This document shows, in pieces, positions 2,543 to 58,614 of a stretch of DNA of 64,000 bases. Below the pieces are notes generated by a model. That model had not been told where the DNA came from. It saw only the letters and a list, made by a program, of their open reading frames with translations, and searched no databases. Position 1 is the stretch's first letter. The number at the start of each line of letters is the position of its first letter. The position numbers and the translations under genes were made by a program. Source of the stretch: an uncultured Verrucomicrobiae bacterium (GTDB lineage Bacteria > Verrucomicrobiota > Verrucomicrobiia > Chthoniobacterales > JAFAMB01); assembly GCA_963762565.1 (NCBI GenBank), contig CAVXLD010000003.1:768001-832000 (forward strand), given 5' to 3'.

Positions 2543-3196
2543 ATGCCTGGCCCATCATTTACAAAATCAAAAAAGGGCGGAGGAGTGCTACCGCTCGGTA
2601 AACGAAACCTTGAAGATCTCGCTACCAAGTTCCTCCCGAATGCTTATCCGACATTCCATAAGCTGGTGACCGACCGGGTCACGCATAGGCCCACCTCAGT
2701 AGCGGTATACGGGATTACTGCAACCAAGACAGGTTCTGATCCCCGATTATCAACACCGTTAGCGCAACTTACACTTGGGGACGTCATCGGACTCTTAGAT
2801 CAATTCAGTTTCCAGATCGATACCTATCTAAGTGGAACTAAGATAAAGGGCGATTCTTATGTGTTGAAAGGTGAATCCCCGAATCCGGGTGAGGCATTGG
2901 CGAACAAGCGCTCATTTACTACCAAGTTAAGCCAACTAAGCTTGCTCAATATTGTCGAATTGCTACCTCAAGCGACATTCTCTTTGAATTCCAAATCATA
3001 CATCATCTCGGGTGGAGTCGAGAACGATGTAGAAGATGAGGCGATAAAGAATTCTCATCTGAAGACCCCGGTTGCCACGCTGACTCCGAAATACCTTCTC
3101 ATACTAACTCGTTTCTTCCGATTTACGAGCATGCCTGCTAACCCTGGGCACGGGACGACTGGCATAGTTGCGTTCAACAAAGTTTTTGGCGAATAG
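2543..3196 (+). CDS. Hypothetical 217-aa protein with three degenerate internal repeats; candidate ATP-grasp substrate/precursor
   Basis: Clean ATG ORF ending 6 bp before the ATP-grasp-like gene. Repeats: LSTPLAQLTLGDVIGLL, FTTKLSQLSLLNIVELL, LKTPVATLTPKYLLILT. Confidence 0.75.
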   Translation: MPGPSFTKSKKGGGVLPLGKRNLEDLATKFLPNAYPTFHKLVTDRVTHRPTSVAVYGITATKTGSDPRLSTPLAQLTLGDVIGLLDQFSFQIDTYLSGTKIKGDSYVLKGESPNPGEALANKRSFTTKLSQLSLLNIVELLPQATFSLNSKSYIISGGVENDVEDEAIKNSHLKTPVATLTPKYLLILTRFFRFTSMPANPGHGTTGIVAFNKVFGE

Positions 3197-3202
3197 CTGC
3201 GC

Positions 3203-3940
3203 TTGATTCTATTAATTAGCCGCACGCAAGACGCTTTGTGCATCGACTTAGCCAGAGGGCTGCAAGAGTGCGGATGCCGGGTGCAAGTGATACCGGAGCT
3301 ATTTCTCAGTCCGGCGGAACTGTCCTGGTGGCTAGGCTCTGAAAGGGGGGCAACCAGCTACCGGTCGCAATCGGGAGAGATGATTTCCGATCAGGATATT
3401 TCTGGCGTTATTTTGCAAAGGAATCCATTCATGCAGGACGATGGGCAGGGGCTTAACGAAGATGTGTATGTCTATGCCGAAAAGGAAGCTGCTCTGCTCG
3501 GTTGGGTATGGGGATTAAGCTGCCCCGTCATAAACCGTTACCCTCCCGAGCTGTGGTTTGAGCCGATCGAATCATTGGAATTTTGGCGCGGGCGGGTAAG
3601 CGTTTCGGACTGGAATTGATAGCCGTGGGGGCCGAGCAAACGGCTTCCTGCTATTCGGTTGCCGTAATCGGTTCACGGGTTATCTGGGACCAAGGCGCCG
3701 CAGAGGCTAGAATGCACGAACGGTCCTCTAATTAAATTCACCAAATCGCTTGGTCTGGCTATCTCGTGCCGGATTACGGATTCCTTGGGTAAGCCGAAGA
3801 TTTCAGGAGTAGAGCCATTCCCGACGTACGATGGGTTCTGCGTGCCAAGCCGGCGGGAGATCGTTACTGAACTGATCCGTTTGATTACTGCGTCCAAAAG
3901 GGAAGTCTCCTCGCGTACCGCAGCCGACTCATGGTTTTAG
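3203..3940 (+). CDS. Degenerate/shortened ATP-grasp-like protein (frameshifted)
   Basis: N-terminus MILLISRTQD..DISGVILQR..AEKEAALLGWVWGLSCPVINR resembles the pre-ATP-grasp domain. Reading across shifts near 3600 and 3725 gives SVAVIGSRVIW..KSLGLA..KISGVEPFP..WF* ending at 3940, overlapping the next start. Confidence 0.65.
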
Positions 3941-20437: not shown

Positions 20438-22024
20438 TTATCCCCCCAGCGCTGTGAGAATCTTGGAGCCGTCAGGGCTTCCAAGACCCGTCGTGGCGTC
20501 CCAACCCGGCCCAGCGCTAAACGCGCCGTTATTCCCTGACACAATATCATTAAACGCGGACGGATTTTGGTACAGAGCAGCATTCACATACCCGACCCGC
20601 GATTTGTTTTGTTGCATCAACGCCTGATTAATCCGGGCGAAAAGCCCTGCATAAAGCGGCGCCACGGCGCTGGTTCCACCGAATATGTTCGAACTCCCGT
20701 CAATGATGACTTGATAACCGGTGACGGGGTCGGCATCGGCGGCAACATCGGGTACCCCGCGGCCTCCTCCGGAGGTGGTCGGGGCAGGGACATTCACCGA
20801 ATCCTGGTAGGACGGTTTCGGGAAATAATCGCTCACACCGCCACCCGTCGCCCCTTCGCCGCTGGCCGTCTCATTCCAAACGACCTCTGACGTAATCGTG
20901 TTTGTGGTGACATCGGCTTCCAGAGTGGTGCCGCCACACCCGACCACATACGGAGACGAAGCCGGGAAATCGACATGATTCTGGCCGTCCGTTTCACCGT
21001 CGGAAGACCCGCTATCACCCGCTGCCACAAAAACCGTTTTCCCCATGGTGCCGGCATCTTGGAAAGCCTGGTTGAAACTCGTAAACGCCTGAGTGGTCCA
21101 AGTCGATTCCGGACCGCCCCAGCTGATCGAGATCAGGGTTACGGTGGAATCGTTTACCGCGGTCGTGACTGCGTCGATAAAGCCTTGATCGGTGTTGGGC
21201 GCAAAGAACACTTTGATGGCGGCTCCGGGCGCAATCGAACCGGCAACTTCAATATCGAGTTCCACCTCGCCGTCCGGCCCGTCAGCACTTCCTGTAGGAC
21301 TGTTGGTGGCTCCATCGATCGACACCGCAGTTACCGTTGGCGCCGGACTGACGCCCAGCTGCTGGAAATAATTTGTGAGATCAGTCTGGTTATAGCCGCC
21401 GCCGAGCTCAATGATTCCGATCGTCTCACCCTGCCCGGTAAATCCGCCGGGAAAATCGTAAACCGCTGCCAGTTGCAGCGGAGTATAAGTCACGGCCGTA
21501 ACAGCTCCTGGAGCAGCCGTCTTTTTGCTGAGGACCCGAAAATGGGCCTGCGCTTGGGGCCGGTTATCGAGTCCGAAGACACCGGTGATGATGTTCGCAA
21601 AGCTGTTCGGGATCCTGATGGTCCCTTGCCGGAGCCGGTAAACACCACCGGCATAGCGGTAGTGCTGGAGATTCACGCCAAATGCTTCGTTCATACGCGC
21701 CGCAGTCCCCGATAAAGTCACGGAACGGCGTCCGAGATCGTGACCGATGATCTGAAGTTGCTGGCTATCCCCATAATTCGTTACGGCCTCAACATCGGCC
21801 GGATCGGCGCCGAATTTGTGCGCGAATTGTTGCGGCGTTAGATAGGTATGGCTCCCCGGTCCGGAGATTTGGTCGACATATTCTTGTAACCCGCTGGGAT
21901 CTTTGGAACGGAGATAGACCGTGACTTGGATCTGGGTATCGGCCGGGCAGGGGCCGACCAATTCTGCGTTTGGAGGGAGTTGGCGCTCGGAACCAGGCAA
22001 TGAGAAACCTTCTGAGTCCTTCAT
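20438..22024 (-). CDS. S53 (sedolisin/kumamolisin) serine-carboxyl peptidase with prodomain
   Basis: EVELDIE, SISWGGPE, AAGDSGS, GRGVPDVAADADP, GGTSAVAP, GWDATTGLGSP. Confidence 0.96.
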   Translation of the reverse strand: MKDSEGFSLPGSERQLPPNAELVGPCPADTQIQVTVYLRSKDPSGLQEYVDQISGPGSHTYLTPQQFAHKFGADPADVEAVTNYGDSQQLQIIGHDLGRRSVTLSGTAARMNEAFGVNLQHYRYAGGVYRLRQGTIRIPNSFANIITGVFGLDNRPQAQAHFRVLSKKTAAPGAVTAVTYTPLQLAAVYDFPGGFTGQGETIGIIELGGGYNQTDLTNYFQQLGVSPAPTVTAVSIDGATNSPTGSADGPDGEVELDIEVAGSIAPGAAIKVFFAPNTDQGFIDAVTTAVNDSTVTLISISWGGPESTWTTQAFTSFNQAFQDAGTMGKTVFVAAGDSGSSDGETDGQNHVDFPASSPYVVGCGGTTLEADVTTNTITSEVVWNETASGEGATGGGVSDYFPKPSYQDSVNVPAPTTSGGGRGVPDVAADADPVTGYQVIIDGSSNIFGGTSAVAPLYAGLFARINQALMQQNKSRVGYVNAALYQNPSAFNDIVSGNNGAFSAGPGWDATTGLGSPDGSKILTALGG

Positions 22025-22135
22025 ACGATGAGTGTTCGCCGAGGGATCGCGTCCGGCAAGTTCGAAGGTCGTGCGGGCTGGCTTTAATCGTCCTCGTCGT
22101 CGTCCTTGAGAGGGGGCGCGTTGATGCCTGGCGCC

Positions 22136-22402
22136 TGAAGGGGAGCCGCTTTGGTGTTAATCTCTCCGCCCTCGCAAATTTCGTCTCAACGCTGACTCCA
22201 ACCGAAAGGTGCAAAAACAGGCGGCTCCCGGGAACAACCCAACAGTTCACAGCTCTACGACCCTGTCCAAACGAGCCCCGGTAAATCGTCGCCCTGGGTT
22301 ATTCGCGGGAGCCGCCTGTTGCAACGTTTCGTGGTTGGATTGAGCGCTGAAACAAATATCGCGAGGCGGTCTGCCACGCGGCAAAACGGCTCCCCTCCAG
22401 GC
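22136..22402. repeat. Palindromic doublet of ~105-bp repeat family B (ggaggggagccgc..gcggctccc)
   Basis: Two inverted units. Related doublets at 31761-32032 and 59447-59720; single units at 23538-23634 and 12357-12452. Confidence 0.9.
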
Positions 22403-22469
22403 GTTGGGAGAACGACGACGATATGCCTGCAGCGCCACGCCGACACGCCGACACGCCGATACGCCCCAA

Positions 22470-23012
22470 CTATCCCGCTCGATAATGCAGACTAACCGCC
22501 CGATAAACATCGGTGTTTCGCTCTGCCGAATAGAAGAAGAGCTGAATACTGCTGCCTGGTTGTTGCCATTGATAACCAACCAGTGTCTCCATCACGTCAC
22601 CTTCCGGTTTCTTATCTCGGGCGAGAACAGTTGGCGGGCCATACTTAGCTTCCAGTTTCTGCCGGGCGCTGTTCAGAAAATCTTCATAGGCAACCAGATC
22701 CCATTCCGGTCGCTGATATTGGAGCTCCACTTCCACCAAGGTCTTTTCGGTCCCGAAATAAATGATGGTGCGTTTGAGACTGGGTTGGAGCAGACCTTCT
22801 ACCGTCCAGGCGTCCCGGCCCTGGATCACCTCCCGGTTCACAATGTGAGCCTCGGCTCTGCTGATGGTCGTCTCGAGTTGTTTTTCGGATTCACCCCAAT
22901 GAAAACCAAAAGGCGGGGTTATCTGTTCGGGGATAACATTCTGAGCCGAACTCGATTCAATCCCAGCGAACCAGATTAACGCGACTATCCATCCAGCAAT
23001 CCTCTTCAACAT
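22470..23012 (-). CDS. Hypothetical secreted protein
   Basis: Signal peptide (..SSA|Q) followed by PPFGFHWGES and a globular domain. Confidence 0.8.
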   Translation of the reverse strand: MLKRIAGWIVALIWFAGIESSSAQNVIPEQITPPFGFHWGESEKQLETTISRAEAHIVNREVIQGRDAWTVEGLLQPSLKRTIIYFGTEKTLVEVELQYQRPEWDLVAYEDFLNSARQKLEAKYGPPTVLARDKKPEGDVMETLVGYQWQQPGSSIQLFFYSAERNTDVYRAVSLHYRAG

Positions 23013-23237
23013 ATAGAACCGCTTCTGACAAAGCACCCTGCATCGCTTACCAATTTCGCCTCCTATTCCGTGATCAGAGTAGACAGCGTAAAAAGCGCCG
23101 TTGACGGTAGGTTGAAAATGTCGAACCGTCGAGGCGTTTTCAACCGCAAACCGCGAATAAAACTCGAACCGCAGCCCCTAAATCCTCCGGGGTGAAATGG
23201 ACGCAGATTGGAGACTGATCCGCAGATTACAGAGCAG

Positions 23238-23490
23238 ATTAAATATCCGCAGATTTCGCAGATTACGCAGATTACGGCTGGCGGTCGATTAACGCCGGAG
23301 GTCGATAGAAACCCTCACGGTAGCGGCTCGGTTTCCGTCAACAACTGATGTGACTTGACCCCAGAGTGAAATCCACGGAGGACTCAACCTATGGTTGATC
23401 CTCGGTGTTGCTACCGGGATAACCGTTGCATCGCGCAGCACCGTAGTCGAAGCCTAAGACGAAATCTGCGTAATCTGCGGATGTTTAATC
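23238..23490. mobile_element. MITE-like ~250-bp element, family D (atatccgcagattacgcagat termini)
   Basis: Terminal inverted repeats; related copies at 26462-26713 (inverted), 29723-29972 and 58418-58575 (shorter). The three long copies share internal ggcggtcgatt. Confidence 0.75.
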
Positions 23491-23761
23491 TTCTTCAATC
23501 TGCGGTTCGTCGCGAAATTGTCCTTTTGAGAGTTCAGTTGGAGGGGAGCCGCTTTACCGCGTCCCTCAAGACCTGACGCTATTTCTTCTATGGCATGTCT
23601 TGCCGAAACGGGTGAGAACAGGCGGCTCCCCTCCGGCGGAACTCCTTGAACTCCTAGTACTCCCCGACTCCGCAAAGCCTACGTCGCGGCGGGCCTTGAA
23701 CTCCTTAATTAACAATTTGCTTGGATTATGGCAGCGTAGCGGCGGTAATCGATAAACCACC

Positions 23762-24511
23762 ATGTTCAAGCGACTAGGAAATTTGATCAAGGGCTTCTTC
23801 GGTTTGTTTGTTAGCGGCTTGGAGAAGCAGAACCCTGAGGCGCTTTTAGAGCTCGAAAGGGAAAACCTGCGCAAACAGATTGCTCAATATAACCAAGGAC
23901 TAGCCGCGCATGCCGGGCTTTGCGAAAGGTTGATTACTCAGGTCAGAAAGTTAGAGACCGAAGAAAGGGAATTGCGCGCCAAGACTACCGCCATGCTGCG
24001 AGCCAATAGCCGGGACGCAGCCGGTCAACTCGCCCTCCGGTTACAAACCATTCAAAGGGAGTTGGGTGAAAACCATAAGCAATTGGAGCAGGCGGAAAAG
24101 ACCTATCAAGAGCTGATTCGAGCCCGAGACGTGGCGGTGAAGAATGCTCAGACGAAAATCGAGGCGCTCCGGTTCAGCCTGGATGACCTCAAGATAAAGA
24201 AGGCGACCGCCGAGCTCACCCAGATGGCTTCCGGGATGGTGACGCAGATCGGTGGAGCAGGGGACACTTTGGATCGCCTCCACCAGATGGTCGAAGAAGA
24301 AAGAGAGGTTGCCGCGGGTAAAGCAAGAGTCGCCCGGGATTCCTTGGACACAACGGGTTTGCATTTGAAAGAGGCAGAGCAAAAGGCATTGGAAGAACAA
24401 GCACTAGCCGACTTCGCAGCCAGCGAGGGTATCGCCTTTCAACCCACCCAGCAGCCCCCCGAGAAAACCGACGAAGGCGGCAGCAAAACCATGGGCCCGG
24501 TCTCGCAGTGA
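23762..24511 (+). CDS. pspA: PspA/IM30 family protein
   Basis: Amphipathic N-helix MFKRLGNLIKGFFGLFV, LEKQNPEALLE, long coiled coil, TLDRLHQMVEEE, ALADFAA. Confidence 0.85.
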   Translation: MFKRLGNLIKGFFGLFVSGLEKQNPEALLELERENLRKQIAQYNQGLAAHAGLCERLITQVRKLETEERELRAKTTAMLRANSRDAAGQLALRLQTIQRELGENHKQLEQAEKTYQELIRARDVAVKNAQTKIEALRFSLDDLKIKKATAELTQMASGMVTQIGGAGDTLDRLHQMVEEEREVAAGKARVARDSLDTTGLHLKEAEQKALEEQALADFAASEGIAFQPTQQPPEKTDEGGSKTMGPVSQ

Positions 24512-24706
24512 GCTTTAGCGTTCGGCGTTTGGCGTTCGCCGTTTGGCGTTCGGCGTTTGGCGTTTGGGGTTCGGCGTTTGGCGTGGCCCGGTCGTGCGAC
24601 ACCCGCGTCCTACATATAAGTCCTATCAGTCCCATAGGTCCTATCCGTGCCACGCCACAACCAGCCGCTTGATCCCCGATCACCACCACAATAAGCGACC
24701 ATCCTA

Positions 24707-26365
24707 ATGAGTTATCGTAGAGAGACATTGCCGGACTGGGCGAAAGAGATGGTGGCCCTTTATGAAAGTGATGCTGCCAGCCAGTTCATTCTCCACGGCA
24801 ATATCCATGACCGTTTTCTGTTAGGCACCACCGATGGAACCTCTTCCGGAGCACTTTTGGATTTCCTCAAAGAGGTCTTGATGCCGCAGTTCGACGTCAT
24901 CCTGCTCTACGATCTGGGGAACGGTCTCCGGGTCGACCGAGGAGGGGAAAAGTTCAAGGAATGGCCTCCCATGCAGATGAACGCAGAACTACCCCGGGCG
25001 CCGCGACCGGCGGTCGAATTGATTACCCGGTTCCTACGGTACTGCGCAAATTTGGCCAGATTGAATCGGGGCGATATCTCGGTCGGCGCCATGGTGGAAT
25101 CGGCTCATCTGGTGGCTCCGGCGGTGCCCGGTGTGCTCAATTATGATTTAAACGCGCTCGCCTTGCTTTTCCGGGAATGGGCCAGTAGCGAGTTCTTTCG
25201 AGGCCAAGCCATCGTGAGCTGTCTATTAACCGAGAACCTGAACGATCTGCATCCAATCGTGGTAAATAATCCGCGGGTCGCGAAAATCAAAATTCCGTTT
25301 CCATCCACCAAGGATCTGGAAGTCGCAATCGCACTGGCTCGAGAGAAGTTTTCGCTAGCGTTAGGCCCGTTCAATGAGCATCCGGAACGGCTGGCGCAAG
25401 GGCTCACCGGGATCACCATGAACGGCTTGGATCGTCTCCTATTGGTCAGGCAATACAAGAAGGAACCATTAGACGAGCAGGATGTCGTCGAGCAGAAACG
25501 GATCATTGTTGAAGAAGAATGTCAGGGGTTAATCGAGTTCATCGCCCCGCGGCGTACCTTGAACAATCTATACGGCCAAGAGAAATTGAAACAAATTCTG
25601 CGCCAGGATCTCGACCTCTGGAAGGTAGGCGATCTGCGAGCGATCCCGATGGGATACCTGATCTGTGGTCCGGTCGGTACGGGAAAGACGTACTTGGTAG
25701 AATGTCTGGCCGGTGAAGCCGGCGTGCCCGTGGTTAAGATCAAGAACTTTCGCGACCGCTGGGTGGGGAGCACGGAAGGAAATCTGGAAAAGATTTTTCG
25801 TCTGCTGCAAGCGTTGGACCGTTGTTACGTGTTCATTGATGAAGCCGACCAGGCGTTGGGTAAACGCGAGACAGGCGGACAAGATGCCGGCTTATCCGGT
25901 AGAATTTATTCCATGATGGCGGCCGAGATGAGCCGTCCGGAAAACCGCGGCCGCTTAGTCTGGATCTTGGCTTCGAGCCGGCCGGACTTGATCGAGGTCG
26001 ATCTAAAGCGACCGGGCCGGATCGACCTGAAAATTCCGATCTTTCCAACAGTGACACCGGAAGAAGGTTACCTGCTACTTAGCTCGCTAGCGAAACGCTA
26101 CGAACTTGAGCTCGCTCCGAGTTATGAAGGCATATCGGTGCCGGATCTGCTTACCCCCGGGGCAGCGGAGTCAATCATGGTGAAAGTTTATCGGCTTGTG
26201 CAAACCACCAAAGCGCCCGTCATGGAAGCGTTAAGGAAATGCCTTACCGAATACCAGAGCCCGGTTCTTCCCGACGTTATGGATGCCCAGATCCGTCTCG
26301 CGATCCAAGAAACCTCTGACATGGAGTTCGTCCCGCAGAAGATCCGTGAGCGCTTCGCCCGATGA
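24707..26365 (+). CDS. AAA+ ATPase (classical clade) with degenerate N-terminal ATPase-like domain
   Basis: Walker A GPVGTGKT, pore loop DRWVGSTEG, Walker B VFIDEAD, SRH SSRPDLIEVDLKRPGRID. Confidence 0.92.
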   Translation: MSYRRETLPDWAKEMVALYESDAASQFILHGNIHDRFLLGTTDGTSSGALLDFLKEVLMPQFDVILLYDLGNGLRVDRGGEKFKEWPPMQMNAELPRAPRPAVELITRFLRYCANLARLNRGDISVGAMVESAHLVAPAVPGVLNYDLNALALLFREWASSEFFRGQAIVSCLLTENLNDLHPIVVNNPRVAKIKIPFPSTKDLEVAIALAREKFSLALGPFNEHPERLAQGLTGITMNGLDRLLLVRQYKKEPLDEQDVVEQKRIIVEEECQGLIEFIAPRRTLNNLYGQEKLKQILRQDLDLWKVGDLRAIPMGYLICGPVGTGKTYLVECLAGEAGVPVVKIKNFRDRWVGSTEGNLEKIFRLLQALDRCYVFIDEADQALGKRETGGQDAGLSGRIYSMMAAEMSRPENRGRLVWILASSRPDLIEVDLKRPGRIDLKIPIFPTVTPEEGYLLLSSLAKRYELELAPSYEGISVPDLLTPGAAESIMVKVYRLVQTTKAPVMEALRKCLTEYQSPVLPDVMDAQIRLAIQETSDMEFVPQKIRERFAR

Positions 26366-26810
26366 AGACAGAAATTCACTACAGAGACACAGAGGACACA
26401 AAGAATGAGGCCTAACCGCAGATGGACGCAGACATGAAGTGATCCGCGGATTAGGAAGAAGATTAAATATCCGCAGATTACGCAGATTACGCAGATTTCG
26501 TTCTGGCGCTTCGATTACGGCGCTGCGCGATGCAAGCCGTTGTGGCGGTAACAATGTCGAGGACCAACCATGGGTTTGACCCATCCGTAGATTTTGGCCT
26601 GGGTTCAAGTCGCACCAGTTATGGATGGAACCGTGCCGCTACCTTGGGGTCGCCATCCGCCCCTGGCGTCAATCGACCGCCAACCGAAAATCTGCGTAAT
26701 CTGCGGATATTTACTCTTCTGCATGATCTGCGGACCATCGAAAGTCGCGTTTTTGTTCGTTAATCTGCGGTTGAGATTTGGTTCTGATTCGTGTCAATTC
26801 GCGTCCATTC

Positions 26811-28100
26811 GTGGTGAATAATCCCCGGCGAGCGGCTTTCATTGTTTTCGGCCTTTGGTTGGCGGTGATCCTCGGGGTGACGATGCGGGGGCTGGTTGCG
26901 CCGCATCAGAACTCGGTGTTCTTGGTTTTCAGGGACGCGGGCCGTGCTTGGCTAGCGGGGCAGCCGCTGTATTCGCATGTCGGTAAATATCTTTATAGCC
27001 CGCTGGCTGCTGCATTGTTTTCGCCTTTTGCGTTGATCCCCGATGGGGCCGCCTCCGCTCTTTGGCGCTTAGTCACCGGCTTGGCGTATCTGATCGCGGT
27101 CGTCTGCTGGTTCCTCCGATACACCGTGTCGTGCTCCCGACTTCGCCAGCCAATCGAGTTGGAAGCCAATGGGCCAAAGGCTTCGTCGGGCAAGCTGTTC
27201 TCGTCGTCGTCCTCGTCCTCGATCTGGTCCTCGTCCTCGGTTTACCCTGCCGTCCTCGCTCTCGCGCTTCTCCTCCCATTATCCATCGGAAACCTGAACA
27301 ATGGCCAAGCAAGCCCGTTGATTATCGCCCTGTTGATTTGCGGATGCCTGGCGGCGTTAGATGAACGTTGGACCTTAACGGCGGCTTGTATTTCAATCGC
27401 TGCCTTCTTCAAGATCTATCCGTTAGCCATCGGCCTACTAGTAGCGGTGATTGAGCCCCGGAAACTCGGTTGGCGGCTGGTACTGGGAATCCTGATCCTT
27501 GGCATCCTTTCCCTAGTGTTGCAGCGGCCTGATTATGTGATCAATCAATACGGCGATTGGTGGCGTAGCTTAGGAGCAGACCAGCGCCGGATCTCAACCG
27601 AGCTAGGTTCATGGCGAGATGCTTGGTTGTTGCTCCGGATCGCCCACGTACCGATCACGGTCGGCGCCTACGCAGTGTTACAAGCGGCTACCGCGATAGC
27701 GGCTGCCGTCTTTTGCTGGTGGCGATCAAAGGTCTGGAATCGAGCCGCAGTGATTTGGAGCGCGTTCAGTGTCGGTTGCCTTTGGATCACCCTATTCGGC
27801 CCTTCCACCGAGCTGGCGACTTATATCTTTTTAGCGCCGGCCGTGGCGTTTGCTTGCGCCCAAACGCTATTGCCTGTGATGCAAAAGCGACAGCCCTTCG
27901 GTTGGTTTCAATTCCTTCCCCTGGCCGCTTATGGGTTGCTTCTTTTGGCGGAAGCGTTGAATGCTTGGGTCCCTGTGATTCGACAGAATAACTATCTCCA
28001 CGCCATTCAACCCGTCGCGGCATTGCTTTTCTTGGGGTTCACTCCTTGTTGGAACCCGCTGAAGTCTGAGCCATCGAACACTAGCGTGTCCTCACAGTAA
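26811..28100 (+). CDS. GT87/DUF2029-like GT-C glycosyltransferase
   Basis: GQPLY..YLYSPLAAALFSPF, NLNNGQ, FKIYP; multi-TM. Confidence 0.85.
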   Translation: MVNNPRRAAFIVFGLWLAVILGVTMRGLVAPHQNSVFLVFRDAGRAWLAGQPLYSHVGKYLYSPLAAALFSPFALIPDGAASALWRLVTGLAYLIAVVCWFLRYTVSCSRLRQPIELEANGPKASSGKLFSSSSSSSIWSSSSVYPAVLALALLLPLSIGNLNNGQASPLIIALLICGCLAALDERWTLTAACISIAAFFKIYPLAIGLLVAVIEPRKLGWRLVLGILILGILSLVLQRPDYVINQYGDWWRSLGADQRRISTELGSWRDAWLLLRIAHVPITVGAYAVLQAATAIAAAVFCWWRSKVWNRAAVIWSAFSVGCLWITLFGPSTELATYIFLAPAVAFACAQTLLPVMQKRQPFGWFQFLPLAAYGLLLLAEALNAWVPVIRQNNYLHAIQPVAALLFLGFTPCWNPLKSEPSNTSVSSQ

Positions 28101-29713
28101 TGAGCCCTTCGACGCGCTTTCAGCTTGCTCAGGGCAGGCCCGCCTGGTTCCAAAATCGCTACCTGATTCTGACAGTGGTTCTTCTGACTGTGACCCTGTA
28201 CCGTCTCTGGTACTCCACCCAGCTGGAGCTCGTTGGGGATGAAGCTTATTATTGGCTGTGGTCGCGTCGCCTTGATCTGGCTTACTTAGATAAAGGGCCG
28301 GTAATCGCCTGGTTCATCGCTGCCGGAACCGCGTTGTTCGGTCAGACTGCTTTTGGGGTCAGATTTTTTGCGGTGATTCTTTCCACTGCGACCGGGATCG
28401 GCCTCTTTCTGTTGGCCCGGCGTTTGTTCTCGGACCGGGTCGGGTTCTGGACGCTCCTGTTAGCGGGTCTGTCACCGATGTTTGCGGCGGGATCGATTCT
28501 CATGACCATCGACACTCCGCTCATCTGTTTTTGGACGTTTGCTGCATTCGCTTTCTGGTGGGCTAAAGGTTCAACCCGGTTGCTGCCCTGGATCGTGACC
28601 GGGATTTTGGTCGGGCTCAGTACGCTCTCTAAGTATACCGGCGCCATTGAATTGATTTCGTTCGCGTTCTTTTGCCTCTGGTATGGTCCCAGCCGGAAAC
28701 AACTCCTGAACGGCCGTTTTCTGGTAATGCTCTTGGTCGTGGGCCTTTGTCTAGTCCCCGTGATTTATTGGAACTGGGAACACCAATGGCCGACGCTCCG
28801 GTTTCTGACGCATCGGGGTGCTTTAGATGAGAAGGCGCATTTCCGTCCGTTGGACGTCTTGGTTTTTTTGGGAGGACAAGCAGGGGTCATCTCCCCGGCC
28901 ATTTTTATTGCACTCGTTGTGGTTCTGTTCTGGCCAAGCTTGAAAACGACGGATGACGAAGGTCAGACCAGATTCTTGCTCGCACTTTTTCTGCCTTTGT
29001 TTCTGCTCTATTTCTTTCTCAGTTTTCAAAAGGCTAGTCAGGCGAACTGGCCCGCTGCCGCCTACGTTGCCGGCTTTATTTTTCTGGCGGCAAAATGGGA
29101 TAGACTAATGAAGCAGGTTCGCTGGGCGAGGTGGTTAGCGATCGCCGGCTTAGCGATCGCACTGATCGAGACCGTTGGCTTGCAGGAGACTCGATGGTTG
29201 AACCTGCCCCCAGGCAAAGATCCCCTCGACCGAGCTCGGGGAGCACGCGATCTCGCCGCTCAAGTTTCTGCTATAGAAACAGAGACTGGCATAAAGGTAG
29301 TGATTGCTAACGCCTATATGACCGCGTCGTTACTCTCATTCTATCTGCCGGGCCAACCGGACACCTACATGCCCTTGTCCAGTGCGCCTTACAACCAGCT
29401 GATCCTTTGGCCAACTTATCGTGAGGAACATCCGCACGAAGACGCCATCTTCATTTCCGAAACGAATCGAGTTCCCACTTCGTTAAAGGACGATTTTCCA
29501 AAGATAGAAGCTGGGAAGGTATTGACCATCACGCAAGATGGCCGAACCATCCGAAAGTTGTATGCGTTTGTGTGCCGGCGTGACGATCAGCACAAAGACA
29601 CAGAGACAAATCTTAACCGCGAATACACGCGAATGGAAACCAAGAGAGAAAAGACTAACCGCAGATGCACGCAGATTGACGCAGATCAGATTACGGACAG
29701 GTCCGCAGACTAA
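28100..29713 (+). CDS. GT39/ArnT-like (PMT_2) glycosyltransferase
   Basis: DEAYYWLWSRRLDLAYLDKGP, MTIDTP, LSKYTG; multi-TM. Confidence 0.9.
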   Translation: MSPSTRFQLAQGRPAWFQNRYLILTVVLLTVTLYRLWYSTQLELVGDEAYYWLWSRRLDLAYLDKGPVIAWFIAAGTALFGQTAFGVRFFAVILSTATGIGLFLLARRLFSDRVGFWTLLLAGLSPMFAAGSILMTIDTPLICFWTFAAFAFWWAKGSTRLLPWIVTGILVGLSTLSKYTGAIELISFAFFCLWYGPSRKQLLNGRFLVMLLVVGLCLVPVIYWNWEHQWPTLRFLTHRGALDEKAHFRPLDVLVFLGGQAGVISPAIFIALVVVLFWPSLKTTDDEGQTRFLLALFLPLFLLYFFLSFQKASQANWPAAAYVAGFIFLAAKWDRLMKQVRWARWLAIAGLAIALIETVGLQETRWLNLPPGKDPLDRARGARDLAAQVSAIETETGIKVVIANAYMTASLLSFYLPGQPDTYMPLSSAPYNQLILWPTYREEHPHEDAIFISETNRVPTSLKDDFPKIEAGKVLTITQDGRTIRKLYAFVCRRDDQHKDTETNLNREYTRMETKREKTNRRCTQIDADQITDRSAD

Positions 29714-30069
29714 AGTAAGAGCTTAAATATCCGCAGATTACACAGATTACGCAGATTACGGTTGGCGGTCGATTCATGTCGGGGACTAAGCAGCTTTTTG
29801 GGGCGCGGGTACGACCCCCAGCGGTGCTGGATGTCACCTGCCCATGACTCAAATCTGTGGATGGTTTAAGCCTGGGTTTGTTATTGGAAACCGCTAGTGG
29901 TTCAGCGGCATCTATCGGTCTACGTCGTAGTCGAAGGCCAGCGCGAAATCTGTGTAATCTGCGGATATTTTGATCTTCTACTTAGTCTGCGGACCTGTGC
30001 ATGATCTGCGTTAATTTAACCCCGGAGAATCTCCGGGCTGCGGTTCGTCTTCCGTCTTTCGCCCTTTCG

Positions 30070-32201: not shown

Positions 32202-33893
32202 ATGCCATTTTCGTCGATTGCTCAGGTCGTCCGCCAGATCACGACCCGTCCGACTCTGCTACAGGTTCTGGCGGTCTCCGTGTTGATCTGGGCCGGCATT
32301 TATCTTCCGGGACTCGGGTCGGTGGAGCTCAAGCACGAAGAACCGCGGCGGGCGCTGCCAGCAGTTCACATGATCGCAACTGGTGATTGGCTGGTTCCAC
32401 GGGTAGGGGAGTTACCGTATCTGCGAAAGCCGCCCCTCTTAAATTGGTTGATCGCCGGGATGTTCAAACTGACTGGTGGAAGGTCGGAATGGGCAGTGCG
32501 TTTCCCATCGGCATTGGCAACCCTGGCTTTAGCTCTCGGGATCGGGATAAGTAGTCAGCGTTGGCTGGGGCGTCTTGGCGGATTGATCGCTTCGATCTTC
32601 TTTCTTACCAATCTCGCGGTGTTGGAGTGCGGGCGTCTGGCGGAATTGGAGGCGGTTTACATCGGGTTAACCGGCCTGGCGCTCGTTATCTGGCTGGCTC
32701 GATGGTACGGTGGGACCATTGGTTTGCGCCTCTGGATCTGGCCTGCCATCCTGCTGGCGCTGGGTCTATTAACAAAGGGACCGACTCATCTCATTTTTTT
32801 CTACGGTGTGATTATCCCCGTGCTGGTCGCAGGCAAAGACCTGAAACTCCTCTTTCGTCCCGCGCATGCGCTGGCCTTGCTACTAATGTTGGCCATCTTC
32901 AGCCTCTGGGCGATACCCTGTTCGTTCGCGGTCGGCCAACATGGTCCGCTCGGCGTATGGCAATTCTGGATTCATCAAATCACCTCACGGGCTTCGGAGA
33001 CAGAAGCTTTCCGGTTTTCGACCTGGCTCCTGAATTTCCCGCAGACGCTAAAGAATTTCTTGCCCTGGACCCCGCTTCTAATCTTGCTGTGGACGAGCGG
33101 GATCGAACGCCGCGGAACCGGAGCGGCAGCTGGAGACACTCAGGGGTTTCGAGCCGCGGCTATTTTCTATGGGGCCCGTCTCGGCATGGTGATCACCTGT
33201 TTGTTGATGTGCCTGTTACCAAGCGGTTCTCCCCGTTATATTTACCCGCTTTTTGTGGTGCCCTGCCTTTTATTGGGGCAGGTCTTCGTTCAAGGAAAGA
33301 CCAATGCATTGACGCACGGCTACCTGAAATGGTGGCGATGGATTAATGCCGTCCTGGTGCTGGCGGGCACCCCGGCAGTGTTGGCGATTCCTTTCATTGC
33401 CGGGATCAACCCAGGTTCGCTCGTAGGTCTGGTGATTGGTATTGGTGCAATGATTCTCGCTTGGGTGAGTCAGCGTTTATCGGTTGAGGATTTTCACCCG
33501 ATGGAACTAGCCGCACGCGCAGCTTTGGTCACCGGACTTGTTTTCGCTGCCGGCATGATCACCTATGGAGCTGCGATTGTTCCCCGGGTGGATGCAATGA
33601 CCAAGAACGGGTTCCGGGAAGTCGCAGCCAGGATCCGGCACGAACTCCCTCCCGGCGCCATCCTCTGGGTTCAAGAGAACGAATACCGGCCTTTCTGGTA
33701 CTATCTGGAGCCGGACGTGCGCTATTTCCTTTCAGTCAGCGATATCTTAGCCGATGCCCGCTATTTCCTAGTGCCCGAGACAGCAGCCCCAGCGTTCGCC
33801 GCCGACCCGCGCCTTGCCGACCGGCATCTGCACGTCCTCGCTCAGGTGCATGATGGGGAGGGGCAGCGGTTTGAAATCCTAGGTGAAAAGTGA
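32202..33893 (+). CDS. ArnT-like GT-C glycosyltransferase
   Basis: EEPRRALPAVHMIATGDWLVP..YLRKPPLLNWL, EWAVRFPSA, LTKGP. Confidence 0.9.
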   Translation: MPFSSIAQVVRQITTRPTLLQVLAVSVLIWAGIYLPGLGSVELKHEEPRRALPAVHMIATGDWLVPRVGELPYLRKPPLLNWLIAGMFKLTGGRSEWAVRFPSALATLALALGIGISSQRWLGRLGGLIASIFFLTNLAVLECGRLAELEAVYIGLTGLALVIWLARWYGGTIGLRLWIWPAILLALGLLTKGPTHLIFFYGVIIPVLVAGKDLKLLFRPAHALALLLMLAIFSLWAIPCSFAVGQHGPLGVWQFWIHQITSRASETEAFRFSTWLLNFPQTLKNFLPWTPLLILLWTSGIERRGTGAAAGDTQGFRAAAIFYGARLGMVITCLLMCLLPSGSPRYIYPLFVVPCLLLGQVFVQGKTNALTHGYLKWWRWINAVLVLAGTPAVLAIPFIAGINPGSLVGLVIGIGAMILAWVSQRLSVEDFHPMELAARAALVTGLVFAAGMITYGAAIVPRVDAMTKNGFREVAARIRHELPPGAILWVQENEYRPFWYYLEPDVRYFLSVSDILADARYFLVPETAAPAFAADPRLADRHLHVLAQVHDGEGQRFEILGEK

Positions 33894-33935
33894 TTGGTGA
33901 TTAGTGATTGGTAAGGCTGCGGCCCCAATCACGTC

Positions 33936-34694
33936 TCACTTCTCACCAATCACTTCCTCCGTCGCCACCTCTTCCACTGGCACCCGTCGCGCTCTTCTCC
34001 GCGAAAACCAACAGACACCAAGCAAATCAACGGCGGGCCGCCAAAGAAAGACACGGAGGTTGTACTTGGCGACTCCGGATTTTCGTGGGCGATGATTGAC
34101 GGGGAATTCGGCGATGGAAAACCCGGCTGCTTTCGCCAAGGCAGGCATAAAGGAATAGAGCGTCTGCATCGGAATAAACGCATCAGCCACTTCTCGATGG
34201 AATCCTTTTAATCCACAGCCAGTGTCAGATACCCCATCGTTTGTGAAAAAGCGGCGGACAGAATTGGCAAACTGAGACATGAGCCTGCGTTTCAGGTCGT
34301 CATGCCGATGCACTCGGTGTCCAACCACGAACTCGTATCGCCCTAATAAACGCAGCGCTTCCGCGATATCACCGGGATCATTCTGTCCATCGCCGTCGAG
34401 CAGGATCACGTTTCGGCCAAACGCTTTTTTGATTCCGGCAAAGAGAGCCGCTCCTTGTCCGGCATTCTGGAGCAGATTAATGATTCGGACTGCAGGCCAA
34501 GTTGAACCGACCCCCTTCATTTGATTTAGCGTACCATCGCTACTGCCGTCATTAACCAGGATGACTTCGTAAGCGCGATGGTCGCGATCCAAGGTTTCCC
34601 GAAGCTCGGTCAGTACCGGGGCGATGTTCGTCTCCTCGTTATAGAATGGGATTACGACACTGTATTCTATGCCTGGATCAGATGGTACACTCAA
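33936..34694 (-). CDS. GT2 polyprenol-phosphate glycosyltransferase (DPM1/ArnC-like)
   Basis: SVVIPFYNEE, VNDGSSDGT, LDGDGQNDP, DTGCGLK, VNHRPRKSG. Confidence 0.93.
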   Translation of the reverse strand: MSVPSDPGIEYSVVIPFYNEETNIAPVLTELRETLDRDHRAYEVILVNDGSSDGTLNQMKGVGSTWPAVRIINLLQNAGQGAALFAGIKKAFGRNVILLDGDGQNDPGDIAEALRLLGRYEFVVGHRVHRHDDLKRRLMSQFANSVRRFFTNDGVSDTGCGLKGFHREVADAFIPMQTLYSFMPALAKAAGFSIAEFPVNHRPRKSGVAKYNLRVFLWRPAVDLLGVCWFSRRRARRVPVEEVATEEVIGEK

Positions 34695-45029: not shown

Positions 45030-48000
45030 ATGAGAGAGATCACTTCAGGTAGTACCACGAGAACGATCGATGTCTTGGTTGTTGCCGCCTCGGATGTACA
45101 AACAGAAAGTGCCATCACCGAACAAGTGCTTCGTTCGGTCGCCGCGGAGTTCGCTCTCCCGGTCCGCGTCTCTTACTCCAATCCATTCCGGGGGTCCAAG
45201 GAGGACGCTGCCGTCGGACCTGCAGATCTTCAGGATGAATCAACTCCGGTCGTTCTGCCTCTCTTTTGGGACGATCCGACGTCAGCAAGAGATGAGTTGG
45301 CGGAACCGGATCTAACCCAATATGACCTCATCATTTGGCTAGTGTGGTCGAGATTTTCATCCGTCCCGGTCGAGAAACAAATCTTGCCGAACGGCAGTCG
45401 CGCTGGGTTCGCAACGAATGGCGAAATCGATCCCGTCCTGGGTCAGGCGCACCGAATTTTTGACCCCAAGAAGTTACGCGTTTACCGAAATCGTGCGACT
45501 CCCGATTCGCTGCTCGAACCGAAAGAAGCACGAGAAGAGATGTGCCGGCAGTGGGACACGGTACAGGATTTCTTCGCCAGATGGGAGAATGAGGACGAAA
45601 TACAGTTTCGCGAGCGGTGCTATGGATTTCTAGGCTTGGAGGAATTCGCGAATTCGTTCCGACAGCATTTTCGCAATTTTCTGGTCCAGCGGTTAGACGA
45701 CGGAGTTGCCCCGAATAAACCGCCATTGCAAAACCGGCTTCGGCGCTCGAACCCTTTTCGAGGGCTGGACTTTTTTGATTTCGAACACGCTTCCTTTTAC
45801 TACGGGAGAACAAAAGCCATCGGGGAAGTGCTCGCTGCTTTAAAGAAGCAGGCGAAGGCAAAAAAATCTTTCGTGCTGGTGCTTGGTCCCAGCGGTTCGG
45901 GAAAGAGTTCCTTACTTCGGGCGGGCGTTCTTCCCCTGTTGACTCAGGGAGGTACTCCCGTAGGCCACGGCCCGTGGCGCCGGCTGATCATCCGGCCTGG
46001 CATAGGGGATCCTATCGATACACTGACCGCTGCTCTATCAGCGAAATTTGCTCTTCCAGAGCTTCCTGATCCCGCGGCGCCAGACGATTCGTTGAGTCTG
46101 GCGTCCCGATTGAGAAAAGACCCGGAAAAAGCGGCTTCTCGGATAGCAGAGGTGTTGGGAAAGTCGAAGCTGCGGCTGGCGCTCGTTGTGGATCAACTGG
46201 AGGATTTGTTCATCGGGGTTTCGCCGGTGCTGCAGCAGAAATTTATCGCCGCGCTGTCGGCGTTAGCTCATTCTGAGGGAGTCTATGTTATCGCTGCATT
46301 GCGCACCGAATTTTACGCGCATTACCAGCGGTTCCCTGAATTGGCAAACCTGACTTCCGGTGGCGGAATGTATGAACTTCCAATGCCGGCAGAGCACGAG
46401 ATCGCCAACCTGATCCGGTTGCCCGCAGAGGCTGCAGGTCTGCATTTCGAACGGGACTCTAAAACAGGTCGGGGCGTGGACGAGTCCTTGCTCAATGGAG
46501 CGTTGAACAGCGCCGATCGGCTACCTTTGCTGGAGTACGTACTTTCAAGATTATACGATAAACAGCTCGAACGAAAAGACGGGGTGGTGCTTTGGTCTGA
46601 TTATACGCAATTGGGCGAATTCAAGAATGCGTTAGCGCAACATGGAGAGTTCGTCTACTTAACGTTGAATCCCGATGAACGGCAGGTTTTTAAGCTCCTG
46701 ATTCGCCAATTGCTGGCGCCTGGCGCCGCCAAGGAAAACGTCTTACGTCGGCGGCCGGTTCCCTACCACGATCTCGTTTCATCGCCCCAGTTTAATGATC
46801 GCCAGAGCGCTGCGGCCAGAGCGGTAATTGATCGTCTGACTAACGAGGGACTGTTGAACGCCGATACTGATTCAAAACACTGCCGATTAATCAGTCTCCC
46901 CCAGGACGCGTTGCTTAAAAGCTGGCCAAGGCTATCGCGGTTGTTGTCTGAAGACCAACAGTTTTTTAGGATGCGCGATCGGCTGGATGAAAGCCTAAGG
47001 CTTTGGCTCAGTCGAGGGAAGCACGGTCATCACTTGCTCTACGACCGAGTCGCCTTGGCCGAAGCGGCGACATTGGTCAGAGATTTCGGCGCGGAACTAA
47101 GCAAAAATCAGTTAGACTACATTCGTAGGAGCCTCGCCAAGCAAAAGCGACACGGTGGGACGCGAATTTATCTCGGGCTGGCAGCGCTGGTCGTTTTTGG
47201 CCTTTTTGCGGCAATCCTGGCTGCCCAACGATTCAACTCGGCCAATCCCGGCAATCAAGCCAAGCTAGAAGTCCAAGCGGCTCAACCGAATAAGCATCTT
47301 GGTAGCGAAGACACGACCGCACTGGAAGCACGGCTAAAGGAGGCAGAAGAGAAGGTACAATTGGCCCAACAGAATGCGGAACTCGCCAATCAAGAGCGCG
47401 CTGCTTTGGAAACGGAACTGAAGACGGCAGGGGACCAGTTGAAGCAACTGCAAGACGCCGAGTTGAGTGATAGCAACGGGAAGGCACTGCAAGCTCAACT
47501 GAAGGAAACAGAGGAAAAGCTGAAGCAGGCCCACGCAAATTTTGAAGATACATCCAGTCAGCTTACCGCCTTACAGGTCCAACTGAAGCAGGAGCAAGAC
47601 AAAGAGCAAAAAGCCCAAGCAAATGCCGATTCGTTAACGAGTGAACGGAACGCCCTGCAAAACCAACTCAAGGCAACCCAGGGAAAGCTTGAGCAAGCCC
47701 AGACAAATTCGGGCGATACCGCCGGCCAGCTTAGCGCTTTGCAGGCACAACTGAAGCAAGAGCAAGACAAAGAGCAAAAAAACCAGGCTAATGCCGATTC
47801 GTTAACCAGTGAGCGGAACGCCTTGCAAAACCAACTCAAGGCGACCCAGGGAAAGCTTGAGCAAGCCCAGACAAATTCGGGCGATGCTGCCGGCCAGCTT
47901 AGCGCTTTGCAGGCACAACTGAAGCAAGAGCAAGACAAAGAACAAAAAGCCCAGGCAAATGCCGATTCGTTAACCAGTGAGCGGAACGCCTTGCAAAACC

Positions 48001-58398: not shown

Positions 58399-58614
58399 AT
58401 CCACGGACAAAGATAAATTATCCGCAGATTAACGCAGATTACGCAGATTTCGCTCTGGGCTTAGTTCACGCTGCAGACCAATGGAAACCGCTGAGCTACG
58501 CACAGGTCTCTAGCACCCTGATGTAATCGGCCTTTGAAACGTAATCTGCGTAATCTGCGTAATCTGCGGATATTATCTTCAGTTTGAACGTCAGCGAAGC
58601 CCAAGAGTCACGTC

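Follow-up and report, generated by a model that had tools for sequence, protein, structure and literature searches.

A pspA-like gene adjoining a tandem AAA ATPase gene in a Chthoniobacterales-like genome: a candidate bacterial counterpart of the ESCRT-III/Vps4 pair

Introduction

The oligomeric state of chloroplast VIPP1 is under ATP-dependent chaperone control by HSP70B-CDJ2-CGE1, which, in contrast to the gene pair studied here, is an Hsp70 system and not a ring unfoldase, and is not gene-linked. The closest described counterpart of the pair was found by genome comparison. Ravi et al. (mSystems 2024; PMC11237479) describe a dyad of PspA and an "inactive classical AAA + classical AAA" protein, which is proposed to act like Snf7/Vps4. 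Genome surveys had already predicted the dyad as an ESCRT-III/Vps4 counterpart, and the idea of the pair is not new. According to a 2025 review on ESCRT-III in bacteria and archaea (PMC7619361), an ATPase of the Vps4 type "appears absent in bacteria". A literature search judged by titles and the starts of abstracts, with subscription journals outside its scope, turned up no experiments on a tandem AAA ATPase linked to PspA.

An earlier note on the locus analyzed here had stated that PspA-AAA neighbourhoods were noted computationally before, which is correct for the dyad of Ravi et al. The note read the pair as a membrane-remodelling polymer with its own recycling ATPase, a view that is partly supported by the analysis reported below.

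Results

The window, i.e., the whole stretch of 64,000 nucleotides that was analyzed, contains the two adjacent, co-directional open reading frames described in the earlier note, both on the + strand. The genes, the spacer between them and the conserved C-terminal elements of the first gene product are as follows:

23762..24511, + strand: pspA-like gene (ORF, 249 aa), encoding a divergent PspA/IM30 (ESCRT-III superfamily) protein
24401..24430, + strand: ALADFAASEG, PspA residues 214-223, where the last helix ends; conserved, with ALADFAAxEGI as family consensus
24485..24499, + strand: KTMGP, PspA residues 242-246, conserved motif of the disordered tail, a candidate tag by which the ATPase would recognise PspA
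24512..24706, + strand: spacer of 195 nt, in which a 7-nt unit is repeated in tandem about ten times (24514-24584; TRF)
24707..26365, + strand: tandem AAA ATPase gene (ORF, 552 aa)

The first gene had been called PspA/ESCRT-III-like, and its product indeed gave a whole-length match to the Pfam family PspA_IM30 (PF04012; residues 2-220 on profile positions 3-216 of 220, E 4.1e-9), scoring 36.8 bits where 33.9 are required, a small margin, and 37.3 bits in the genome scan. It is the only PF04012 match in the whole genome. In the predicted structure, helices span residues 2-23, 25-80, 84-163, 170-187 and 200-222 and the tail (224-249) is disordered, so that the model displays the N-terminal amphipathic helix, the long helical hairpin and the shorter helices (alpha0-alpha5) by which membership is recognized. 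The pLDDT is above 85 for residues 31-140, lower elsewhere and below 50 for residues 224-249. When the model was compared with the PDB using Foldseek, the top 11 matches were Vipp1 chains, followed lower in the ranking by PspA, Asgard ESCRT-IIIB, CdvB and Snf7, all with weak E values (>=1e-3). No solved PspA or Vipp1 chain was found when the PDB sequences were searched with the subfamily profile (E<=1), and the PADLOC defence models gave coiled-coil noise only. It is concluded that the window PspA is a divergent subfamily member of PspA/IM30, an assignment that leans on a Pfam score barely above the cut-off and on weak Foldseek E values.

The window had been described as having no pspBC or pspF, and this was confirmed by Pfam scans of 50 window ORFs, among which pspB, pspC and pspF are absent, and by genome-wide profile searches. 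The PspB/PspC profiles PF04024 and PF06667 had zero matches across the genome (completeness 93.7%), and none of the 15 sigma-54-activator matches found genome-wide lies inside the window (C3:768001-832000).

The second gene product consists of two AAA-like halves, with the conserved motifs in the second one. Residue conservation was taken from an alignment of 33 members:

24707..25471, + strand: ATPase D1, about residues 1-255; the fold is AAA-like but the P-loop lysine is missing, predicted inactive
25472..26365, + strand: ATPase D2, about residues 256-552, classical AAA module predicted active, with lid and conserved C-terminal helix
25667..25690, + strand: Walker A GPVGTGKT, residues 321-328; G324, G326 and K327 invariant
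25757..25768, + strand: pore loop 1 RWVG, residues 351-354; R349 and G354 invariant, family consensus NFRDKWVG
25832..25849, + strand: Walker B FIDEAD, residues 376-381; D378, E379 and A380 invariant
25973..26026, + strand: SRH with arginine fingers, SSRPDLIEVDLKRPGRID, residues 423-440; R435 and R438 invariant, R425 nearly invariant

The Pfam family AAA (PF00004) matched residues 318-444 with an E value of 9.4e-24. Walker A, Walker B, an aromatic-hydrophobic-Gly pore loop 1 and an SRH with arginine fingers, which together define a classical AAA protein, are all present, and the RWVG pore loop and the intact SRH named in the earlier note could be located at residues 351-354 and 423-440. That note had also described a degenerate ATPase-like region at the N-terminus, which is confirmed. 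Residues 1-300 contain no GK[ST] P-loop, with LHGNIHD standing at 29-35, and Foldseek recovered a tandem AAA fold. The AlphaFold model (pLDDT 90, pTM 0.84) aligned with both halves over ∼570-610 columns to Drg1/Afg2, Rix7, p97/Cdc48 and NVL (E ∼5e-21 to 1e-19), and the TMq against tandem type-II AAA proteins reached up to 0.58. Among solved structures, D2 is closest in sequence to the D2 domains of VAT, Cdc48 and p97 (E ∼1e-31). For D1, the domain family counts 721 clusters when E<=1e-3 is required and 292 when the limit is E<=1e-10. Among the NCBIfam models, CDC48 scored 65.5 bits (cut-off 802.65), FtsH 63 and CdvC 29.3 (cut-off 650). Ycf46, which the earlier note had proposed for comparison, does not occur in the names of the 120 homologues listed for the ATPase. 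The Pfam scan of the ATPase gave no MIT, sigma-54 activator (PF00158), DNA-binding or protease domain, and among the PADLOC defence models only a generic AAA similarity to IetA (39.7 bits) was seen. The protein is therefore classified, from its sequence and predicted model, as a tandem AAA ATPase in which D1 is dead and D2, which is Cdc48-D2-like, is predicted to be active.

To describe the surroundings of the ATPase gene in relatives, 104 related loci were fetched, 79 of which were informative. Roseibacillus ishigakijimensis KCTC 12986 and R. persicicus KCTC 12988 represent cultured carriers among the loci. In 59 of the 79 informative loci the ATPase gene is preceded by a PspA gene on the same strand, which is adjacent in 34, separated by one gene in 24 and at a distance of 3 kb in one. 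Because this gene order recurs, the adjacency in the window is not due to chance. The two ORFs abut or overlap in at least nine loci when the longest ORFs are called. A third gene, for a helical protein with two TM helices, often accompanies the pair. Its product (two TM helices and a helical domain) belongs to no Pfam family at E<=0.01 and has no profile similarity to PspA (hhalign probability 0.6%). The window locus is without this third gene, and one query did not find it in the window's genome. Across the 104 loci, the pair has no conserved protease gene as a neighbour.

The remaining 20 of the 79 informative loci have no PspA gene upstream; 11 of them belong to one clade of metagenome contigs, and these counts cover loci, not their genomes. 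Neighbours in such loci include FecR-domain proteins in four (L068, L083, L093, L107), with translational coupling to the ATPase gene in L068 and L083 only, and a Band-7 protein in L081. Further neighbours in the PspA-less loci L107, L072 and L099 showed no relation to PspA or to the third gene product. In the ATPase tree, the PspA-less loci fall mainly in two clades nested among PspA-linked ones, a topology that would fit secondary unlinking.

In 401 sampled genomes of the class, the occurrence of the PspA subfamily and of the close ATPase was cross-tabulated by eye. Both genes were found in 29 genomes, the PspA subfamily only in four and the close ATPase only in one, which is 86% complete. 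This near one-to-one co-occurrence includes unlinked genes: in 13 of the 29 genomes with both, the two genes are on different contigs or 409 kb apart. Likewise, all five Roseibacillus-type genomes in which the ATPase gene has no PspA neighbour encode one full-length subfamily PspA elsewhere. In ten of the 401 genomes, subfamily PspA is missing and the ATPase is represented by distant relatives only. The conservation of the neighbourhood, proposed as a check in the earlier note, thus holds for linkage and for co-occurrence.

The C-terminal end of PspA was compared between the same groups. In 25 aligned AAA-linked PspAs, A214, L215, A216, F218, A219, A220 and G223 are invariant and G245 is nearly invariant. 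A[LM]A[DE]FA[AS] was found in all 59 linked PspAs and the K-[ST]-M-G-P-like pattern in 55, the remaining four having near-variants. In 28 of the 29 ATPase-bearing genomes the match to the subfamily profile extends to at least position 246 of 252, whereas in the four ATPase-less genomes, which represent three lineages only, every match stops at 231-240 and none enters the tail. When tails were read directly, K[ST]MGP was missing in G096, G471, G346 and G408. The PspA tail of G081, in which the ATPase gene is unlinked, retains K[ST]MGP, and the ATPase-linked PspA of G340 is divergent and has no clear K[ST]MGP. Canonical PspAs from ATPase-less genomes have different C-terminal ends and score zero on the subfamily profile. 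Because the profile match to the tail tracks the ATPase (28/29 versus 0/4), the tail is a candidate recognition tag; as the genomes of one class are not independent, the tail-ATPase and co-occurrence correlations are descriptive only.

The spacers of the closest relatives contain G/T-rich heptad runs similar to that of the window. No Rfam match (E<=0.1) was obtained for positions 22000-27500, the RNA fold of the spacer was not better than that of shuffles (z -0.38) and no terminator-like sites lie inside it. Promoter and terminator scans did not rise above shuffles, with one promoter-like site versus 2.2 expected and seven terminator-like sites versus 5.1 expected, four of these seven being a repeat element. 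A putative sigma-54 promoter (TGGCA-N9-GC, ∼20 nt before the pspA start) was rejected, since it is too near the ATG and is missing in L007, L009, L012 and L013.

Discussion

The locus resembles the dyad of Ravi et al. (PMC11237479), in which a PspA gene likewise adjoins a gene for a two-AAA protein with an inactive N-terminal AAA, and a membrane-anchored helical protein accompanies the pair, as it does in relatives of the window locus. From the matching description we infer family identity with the example proteins AEY64320.1 and CKH37208.1. Compared with the contexts described there, the window holds a minimal two-gene form, without the genes for a TM helical protein, an ABC transporter and PBPB-OmpA, and its pair sits in a Chthoniobacterales-like soil genome. 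The third gene of the relatives might correspond to the "divergent Snf7" of Ravi et al., but its product has no profile similarity to PspA.

As with ESCRT-III and Vps4/CdvC, an ESCRT-III-superfamily polymer is encoded alongside an AAA ATPase of the classical clade whose pore loop is aromatic, and the conserved C-terminal element of PspA may be comparable in role to the MIM of ESCRT-III. In contrast to Vps4/CdvC, the window ATPase has no MIT, and in place of a single AAA module it has two in tandem, of which D1 is dead. Together with the low CdvC score (29 bits versus 650) and a D2 nearer to Cdc48, this bears out the wording "Vps4-analogous" of the earlier note: relative to Vps4, the ATPase is analogous and not orthologous. 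The tandem D1-D2 fold over the whole length is shared with Cdc48/p97/VAT, Drg1/Afg2, Rix7 and NVL. Unlike Cdc48/p97/VAT, however, the ATPase begins at D1, without an N-terminal double-psi-barrel substrate/adaptor domain, its D1 has no Walker A lysine, and it scores far below the CDC48 family cut-off. In the PspF-PspA system of Proteobacteria an AAA+ protein is functionally tied to PspA, as is proposed here; PspF, however, belongs to the sigma-54 enhancer-binding proteins and carries an HTH, and the window ATPase has neither domain.

The preferred reading is an ATP-driven extraction or disassembly of PspA polymers by the neighbouring ATPase, analogous and not homologous to Vps4, to which a probability of roughly 0.5 is assigned. 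The observations behind it are the folds and motifs of both proteins, a linkage that is conserved, the joint occurrence of the genes and a tail that correlates with the ATPase. Like other ESCRT-III superfamily proteins, PspA would assemble into polymers on the cytoplasmic membrane, at its inner face. The ATPase would form a two-tier hexamer, in which the D1 ring is probably structural and the D2 ring would hydrolyse ATP and drag polypeptide through the central pore via the R-W-V-G loop. It may engage the disordered PspA tail at the K-[ST]-M-G-P-like motif that follows the ALADFAA helix; PspA subunits would then be extracted or unfolded, and the polymer disassembled, remodelled or recycled. A Vps4-type role for ESCRT-III would in this way have been reached independently from a Cdc48-like ancestor. 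A broader and more tentative proposal, rated somewhat below an even chance, is that bacteria have ATP-driven ESCRT-III dynamics in which a Cdc48-derived motor would read the K-[ST]-M-G-P tag and strip subunits, the tag decaying once the motor is lost.

PspA could instead be an adaptor or platform that recruits the unfoldase to the stressed membrane, with the tail as docking site and other proteins, e.g., damaged or mislocalised membrane proteins, as clients. Cdc48-type motors generally use adaptors, relatives of the ATPase adjoin other membrane-associated proteins (FecR-domain in four loci, Band-7 in L081), and distant members of the ATPase family occur in ten of 401 genomes that have no subfamily PspA. 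Furthermore, Ravi et al. interpret PspA contexts as chaperone-like membrane assembly machinery (PMC11237479). However, within the close subfamily both genes are present in 29 of the 34 genomes having either, disordered tags at a terminus are found more typically on threaded substrates than on adaptors, and the non-PspA neighbours differ from locus to locus, with FecR coupling in two loci only. An adaptor role is considered unlikely.

Less likely still, the ATPase could set the assembly state of PspA without threading, either by keeping PspA soluble or inactive until stress, in the manner of PspF-PspA in E. coli, or as an assembly or loading chaperone. PspA-AAA+ regulatory complexes are known in Proteobacteria (PspF; PMC7619361), and since PspB, PspC and a local PspF are missing here, another regulator of PspA would be needed. 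On the other hand, the ATPase has no sigma-54 activator or DNA-binding domain and carries the full equipment of an unfoldase, with aromatic pore loop, SRH and Walker B.

AAA+ unfoldases recognise degradation tags, and conserved terminal motifs on disordered tails, such as that of PspA, resemble such tags. The ATPase might thus deliver PspA to a protease, the tail being a degron for regulated turnover, without recycling of the polymer. This is judged improbable, as among the 104 loci no protease gene is conserved beside the pair, the third gene that recurs there encodes a two-TM helical protein without a Pfam family and the ATPase itself has no protease domain. That the two genes are chance neighbours without shared function, for which the repeat-containing 195-nt spacer and the broken linkage in 13 of 29 genomes could be cited, is already disfavoured and very improbable, given the linkage in 59 of 79 loci with abutting ORFs in other lineages, a co-occurrence that survives unlinking and a tail that correlates with the ATPase.

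Extraction of PspA by its neighbouring ATPase stays the preferred reading, and the gene pair is an obvious candidate answer to the question of how PspA/Vipp1 polymers come apart. The window offers a very simple version of it, with two genes, of which one encodes the genome's sole copy of the membrane-repair protein PspA, while PspB, PspC and a local PspF are missing. What the present analysis adds to the published dyad is the correlation between tail and ATPase: the short conserved PspA tail motif, which tracks the ATPase across genomes, provides a precise and cheap experimental handle. If the proposed mechanism is true, the pair would represent an independent invention of the Vps4 principle in bacteria.

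Sequence and predicted structure of the two proteins

The window belongs to contig C3 of its source genome (6.1 Mb, 15 contigs, completeness estimate 93.7%). Close homologues bear Chthoniobacterales and Verrucomicrobiota names, and the window DNA is present in soil metagenome runs. An earlier note had described two co-directional ORFs, and both could be found where it had placed them.

23762-24511, + strand: pspA-like ORF, encoding P0001 (249 aa)
24707-26365, + strand: ATPase ORF, encoding P0002 (552 aa)
P0002 residues 321-328: Walker A, intact
P0002 residues 351-354: pore loop RWVG, intact
P0002 residues 376-381: Walker B, intact
P0002 residues 423-440: SRH, intact
Upstream of the pair, opposite strand: kumamolisin-like peptidase gene and ORFs without a family (Pfam)
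Downstream of the pair: GT87 and PMT_2 glycosyltransferase genes (Pfam)

P0001 matched the Pfam family PspA_IM30 over its whole length with 36.8 bits (E 4.1e-9), barely over the 33.9-bit cut-off, and the source genome has no other PF04012 match. Its AlphaFold model (mean pLDDT 73, high in the hairpin) contains helices at residues 2-23, 25-80, 84-163, 170-187 and 200-222, followed by a disordered tail (224-249). Foldseek searches with this model returned Vipp1 chains at ranks 1-11 and then PspA, Asgard ESCRT-IIIB, CdvB and Snf7, with E values that were weak (≥1e-3), as is usual with long helical proteins. PspA or Vipp1 was not found when the profile of the PspA subfamily of P0001 was compared with the sequences of solved structures. 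P0001 is accepted as a divergent member of the PspA family. The lack of pspBC and pspF in the window, reported previously, was confirmed: PspB and PspC models gave zero matches in the whole source genome, and none of its 15 sigma-54 activator matches lies within the window.

P0002 contains a single Pfam AAA domain (residues 318-444), in which the RWVG pore loop and intact SRH of the earlier description were recovered; the motif residues, including those of Walker A and B, are invariant or near-invariant in a 33-member alignment. The confident model of P0002 (pLDDT 90, pTM 0.84) aligns over its whole length to the tandem type-II AAA unfoldases Drg1/Afg2, Rix7, p97/Cdc48 and NVL (E ~5e-21 to 1e-19, TMq ≤0.58), and therefore the first 255 residues are taken as a second AAA-like domain. 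In this N-terminal half (D1) the P-loop lysine is absent and LHGNIHD occupies the expected P-loop position, in agreement with the degenerate ATPase-like region noted before. Among solved structures, those most similar to P0002 in sequence are the D2 domains of VAT, Cdc48 and p97 (E ~1e-31). Against the NCBIfam models P0002 stayed far under the family cut-offs, with 65 bits (CDC48), 63 bits (FtsH) and 29 bits (CdvC). A Vps4/CdvC relative was ruled out by the CdvC score and a Cdc48 orthologue by the absent N domain; a PspF-like protein was also ruled out. The N-terminal domain on its own gives a family of 721 clusters (50% identity) with a threshold of E≤1e-3, of which 292 remain at E≤1e-10.

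Intergenic sequences and surroundings

The spacer between the two ORFs is 195 nt long and contains ~10 copies of a 7-nt repeat, with G/T-rich heptads (TTTGGCG/GTTCGGC) followed by GTCCTAT/GTCCCAT-like repeats at 24514-24584. Similar heptads fill the spacers of the related loci L007, L009, L010 and L031; this form is restricted to the lineage of the window, and spacers elsewhere measure 0-70 nt. The repeat had no Rfam match and its RNA fold was not unusual. Directly 5' of the pspA start, a conserved stretch (23700-23761; TTAACAAT..GCTTGG..TGGCAGCGTA..GGTAATCGATAAACCACC) is common to L010 and L031 and partly to L012 and L013; its resemblance to a sigma-54 -24 element was unconvincing.

A MITE- or REP-like element, intergenic and ~260-300 nt long, occurs at 23205-23510, 26425-26740 and 29690-29990, with a partial copy at 58544-58571. 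Two copies flank the pair and the third lies 3' of a PMT_2 gene. Its inverted termini (~45 nt) are conserved and its interior has diverged; the termini carry the core ATCTGCGTAATCTGCGGAT and repeats of the 9-nt CGCAGATTA, and the core gave 10 matches versus 0 expected (≤2 mismatches). The membrane glycosyltransferase cluster 3' of the pair (26778-29713 and 32202-34694) encodes GT87, two PMT_2 and GT2 proteins. The product of 45030-50099 (+ strand) is 1689 aa long and contains an nSTAND1 NTPase domain (E 1.1e-77).

Linkage in related loci

The ORFs of 104 loci (24 genome and 80 metagenome) encoding relatives 45-95% identical to P0002 were searched with profiles built in this analysis. PspA was located directly upstream on the same strand in 34 loci, with one gene in between in 24 and 3 kb upstream in one; it was absent from 20 despite at least 1700 nt upstream, and in 25 the upstream DNA was too short for judgement. 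Linkage, the conservation of which the earlier note had wanted checked, therefore holds in 59 of the 79 informative loci. The ORFs of the pair directly adjoin or overlap each other in at least nine loci.

A quick ML tree was computed from 98 ATPase sequences. Most of the 20 PspA-less loci grouped there in two clades that lie within PspA-linked ones: one of 14 rows (11 PspA-less metagenome contigs and three too short upstream) and a Roseibacillus-type clade with seven PspA-less loci. FecR-domain genes adjoin PspA-less ATPase relatives at L068:6362-7183, L083:2245-3234, L093:6303-7118 and L107:4841-5656, those of L068 and L083 overlapping the ATPase ORF by 1-4 nt, and Band_7 and GntR genes lie upstream of the relative in L081.

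A third gene, whose product of ~275 aa has two N-terminal TM helices and a helical domain, recurs in 44 of the 104 loci (e.g., L046:4111-4944, L016:5180-5980, L074:6634-7485). In 25 loci it separates the PspA and ATPase genes, and in 12 it directly follows the ATPase; in seven further loci the contig is cut. The product has no Pfam family and no profile similarity to PspA. The gene is absent from the window locus and was not found in the source genome with one query.

Co-occurrence in genomes

Among 401 evenly drawn genomes of the class, 33 matched the PspA subfamily profile (E≤1e-20) and 40 the ATPase N-domain profile (E≤1e-10), 30 of the latter closely (≥277 bits) and 10 with distant members only (≤138 bits). 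The two lists were cross-tabulated by eye, and the counts are uncorrected for the kinship of the genomes.

Co-occurrence in the class sample
PspA subfamily and close ATPase: 29/401 genomes
PspA subfamily without close ATPase: 4/401 genomes
Close ATPase without PspA subfamily: 1/401 genomes (86% complete)

In this last genome (L124, G487:C119), a 344-aa ORF without a Pfam family (2698-3732, minus strand) shares 4 nt with the start of the ATPase ORF. The two genes are adjacent in 14 of the 29 genomes and one gene apart in two; in the other 13 they are found on separate contigs or at a distance of 409 kb. All five Roseibacillus-type genomes whose ATPase has no PspA neighbour hold exactly one full-length subfamily PspA elsewhere (384-394 bits). 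Of 151 genomes sampled across the phylum, seven contain the ATPase family and 12 have a PF04012 match of any kind. Canonical PspAs were found there without the ATPase; it is therefore this PspA subfamily to which the ATPase is specifically tied.

The C-terminal tail of PspA

In an alignment of 25 ATPase-linked PspAs, the C-terminal region is conserved at two places. The last helix closes with ALADFAAxEGI, in which seven positions are invariant, and past a variable linker a K-[ST]-M-G-P-like motif stands close to the terminus. The former type of motif is present in 59/59 linked PspAs; the latter was matched by a regular expression in 55, with near-variants in the other four. Of the 29 ATPase-bearing genomes of the class sample, 28 have a subfamily profile match that extends to at least position 246 of 252, the exception being G340 with a divergent PspA adjacent to its own ATPase. 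The match ends at 231-240 in all four ATPase-less genomes, none of which has K[ST]MGP in its tail on direct reading. Two of these, G096 and G471 from one genus, have lost the ALADFAA pattern too, and no ATPase N-domain was matched in G096 even at E≤0.01. G081, with its ATPase gene unlinked, retains both motifs. The canonical PspAs of genomes that lack the ATPase have a different terminal motif and do not match the subfamily profile. With ATPase losses few in the sample (three lineages), this sequence pattern is what would be expected if the tail existed for the ATPase, and the tail is a candidate recognition tag.

Discussion

The best reading is a PspA polymer with a dedicated unfoldase. Beyond the two genes belonging together, we infer every step: the ATPase would form a hexameric two-tier ring that captures the disordered PspA tail, and pore loops of its C-terminal half (D2) would pull subunits out of the polymer, which would thereby be dismantled or remodelled, as ESCRT-III is by Vps4.

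There is some support for PspA being a membrane adaptor, with the ATPase extracting other clients: FecR-domain proteins lie beside ATPase relatives in four loci, two of them translationally coupled, a Band-7 protein lies beside one, and the ten genomes with distant ATPase members only have no subfamily PspA. Other rivals are that the ATPase controls PspA assembly without threading, or that it delivers PspA to a protease. That the genes are unrelated neighbours is the weakest, since their retention after unlinking argues for shared function more strongly than adjacency does.

PspA-AAA neighbourhoods had, as the earlier note said, been noticed computationally: in the passages on the PspA/two-AAA dyad, Ravi et al. 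(2024; PMC11237479) proposed Snf7/Vps4-like ATP-dependent remodelling and described a membrane-anchored divergent Snf7 and transporter genes as occasional companions. The window pair fits the description of this dyad and is the minimal two-gene form of a module already predicted in print. In its passage on the subject, a 2025 review (PMC7619361) states that a Vps4-like ATPase 'appears absent' in bacteria, and no experimental study of a PspA-linked tandem AAA ATPase was among the papers listed by full-text searches. The feature first noted is real and was correctly described, and its interpretation is sensible; added here are the correlation between the PspA tail and the ATPase and the observation that both genes are kept once they have become unlinked.
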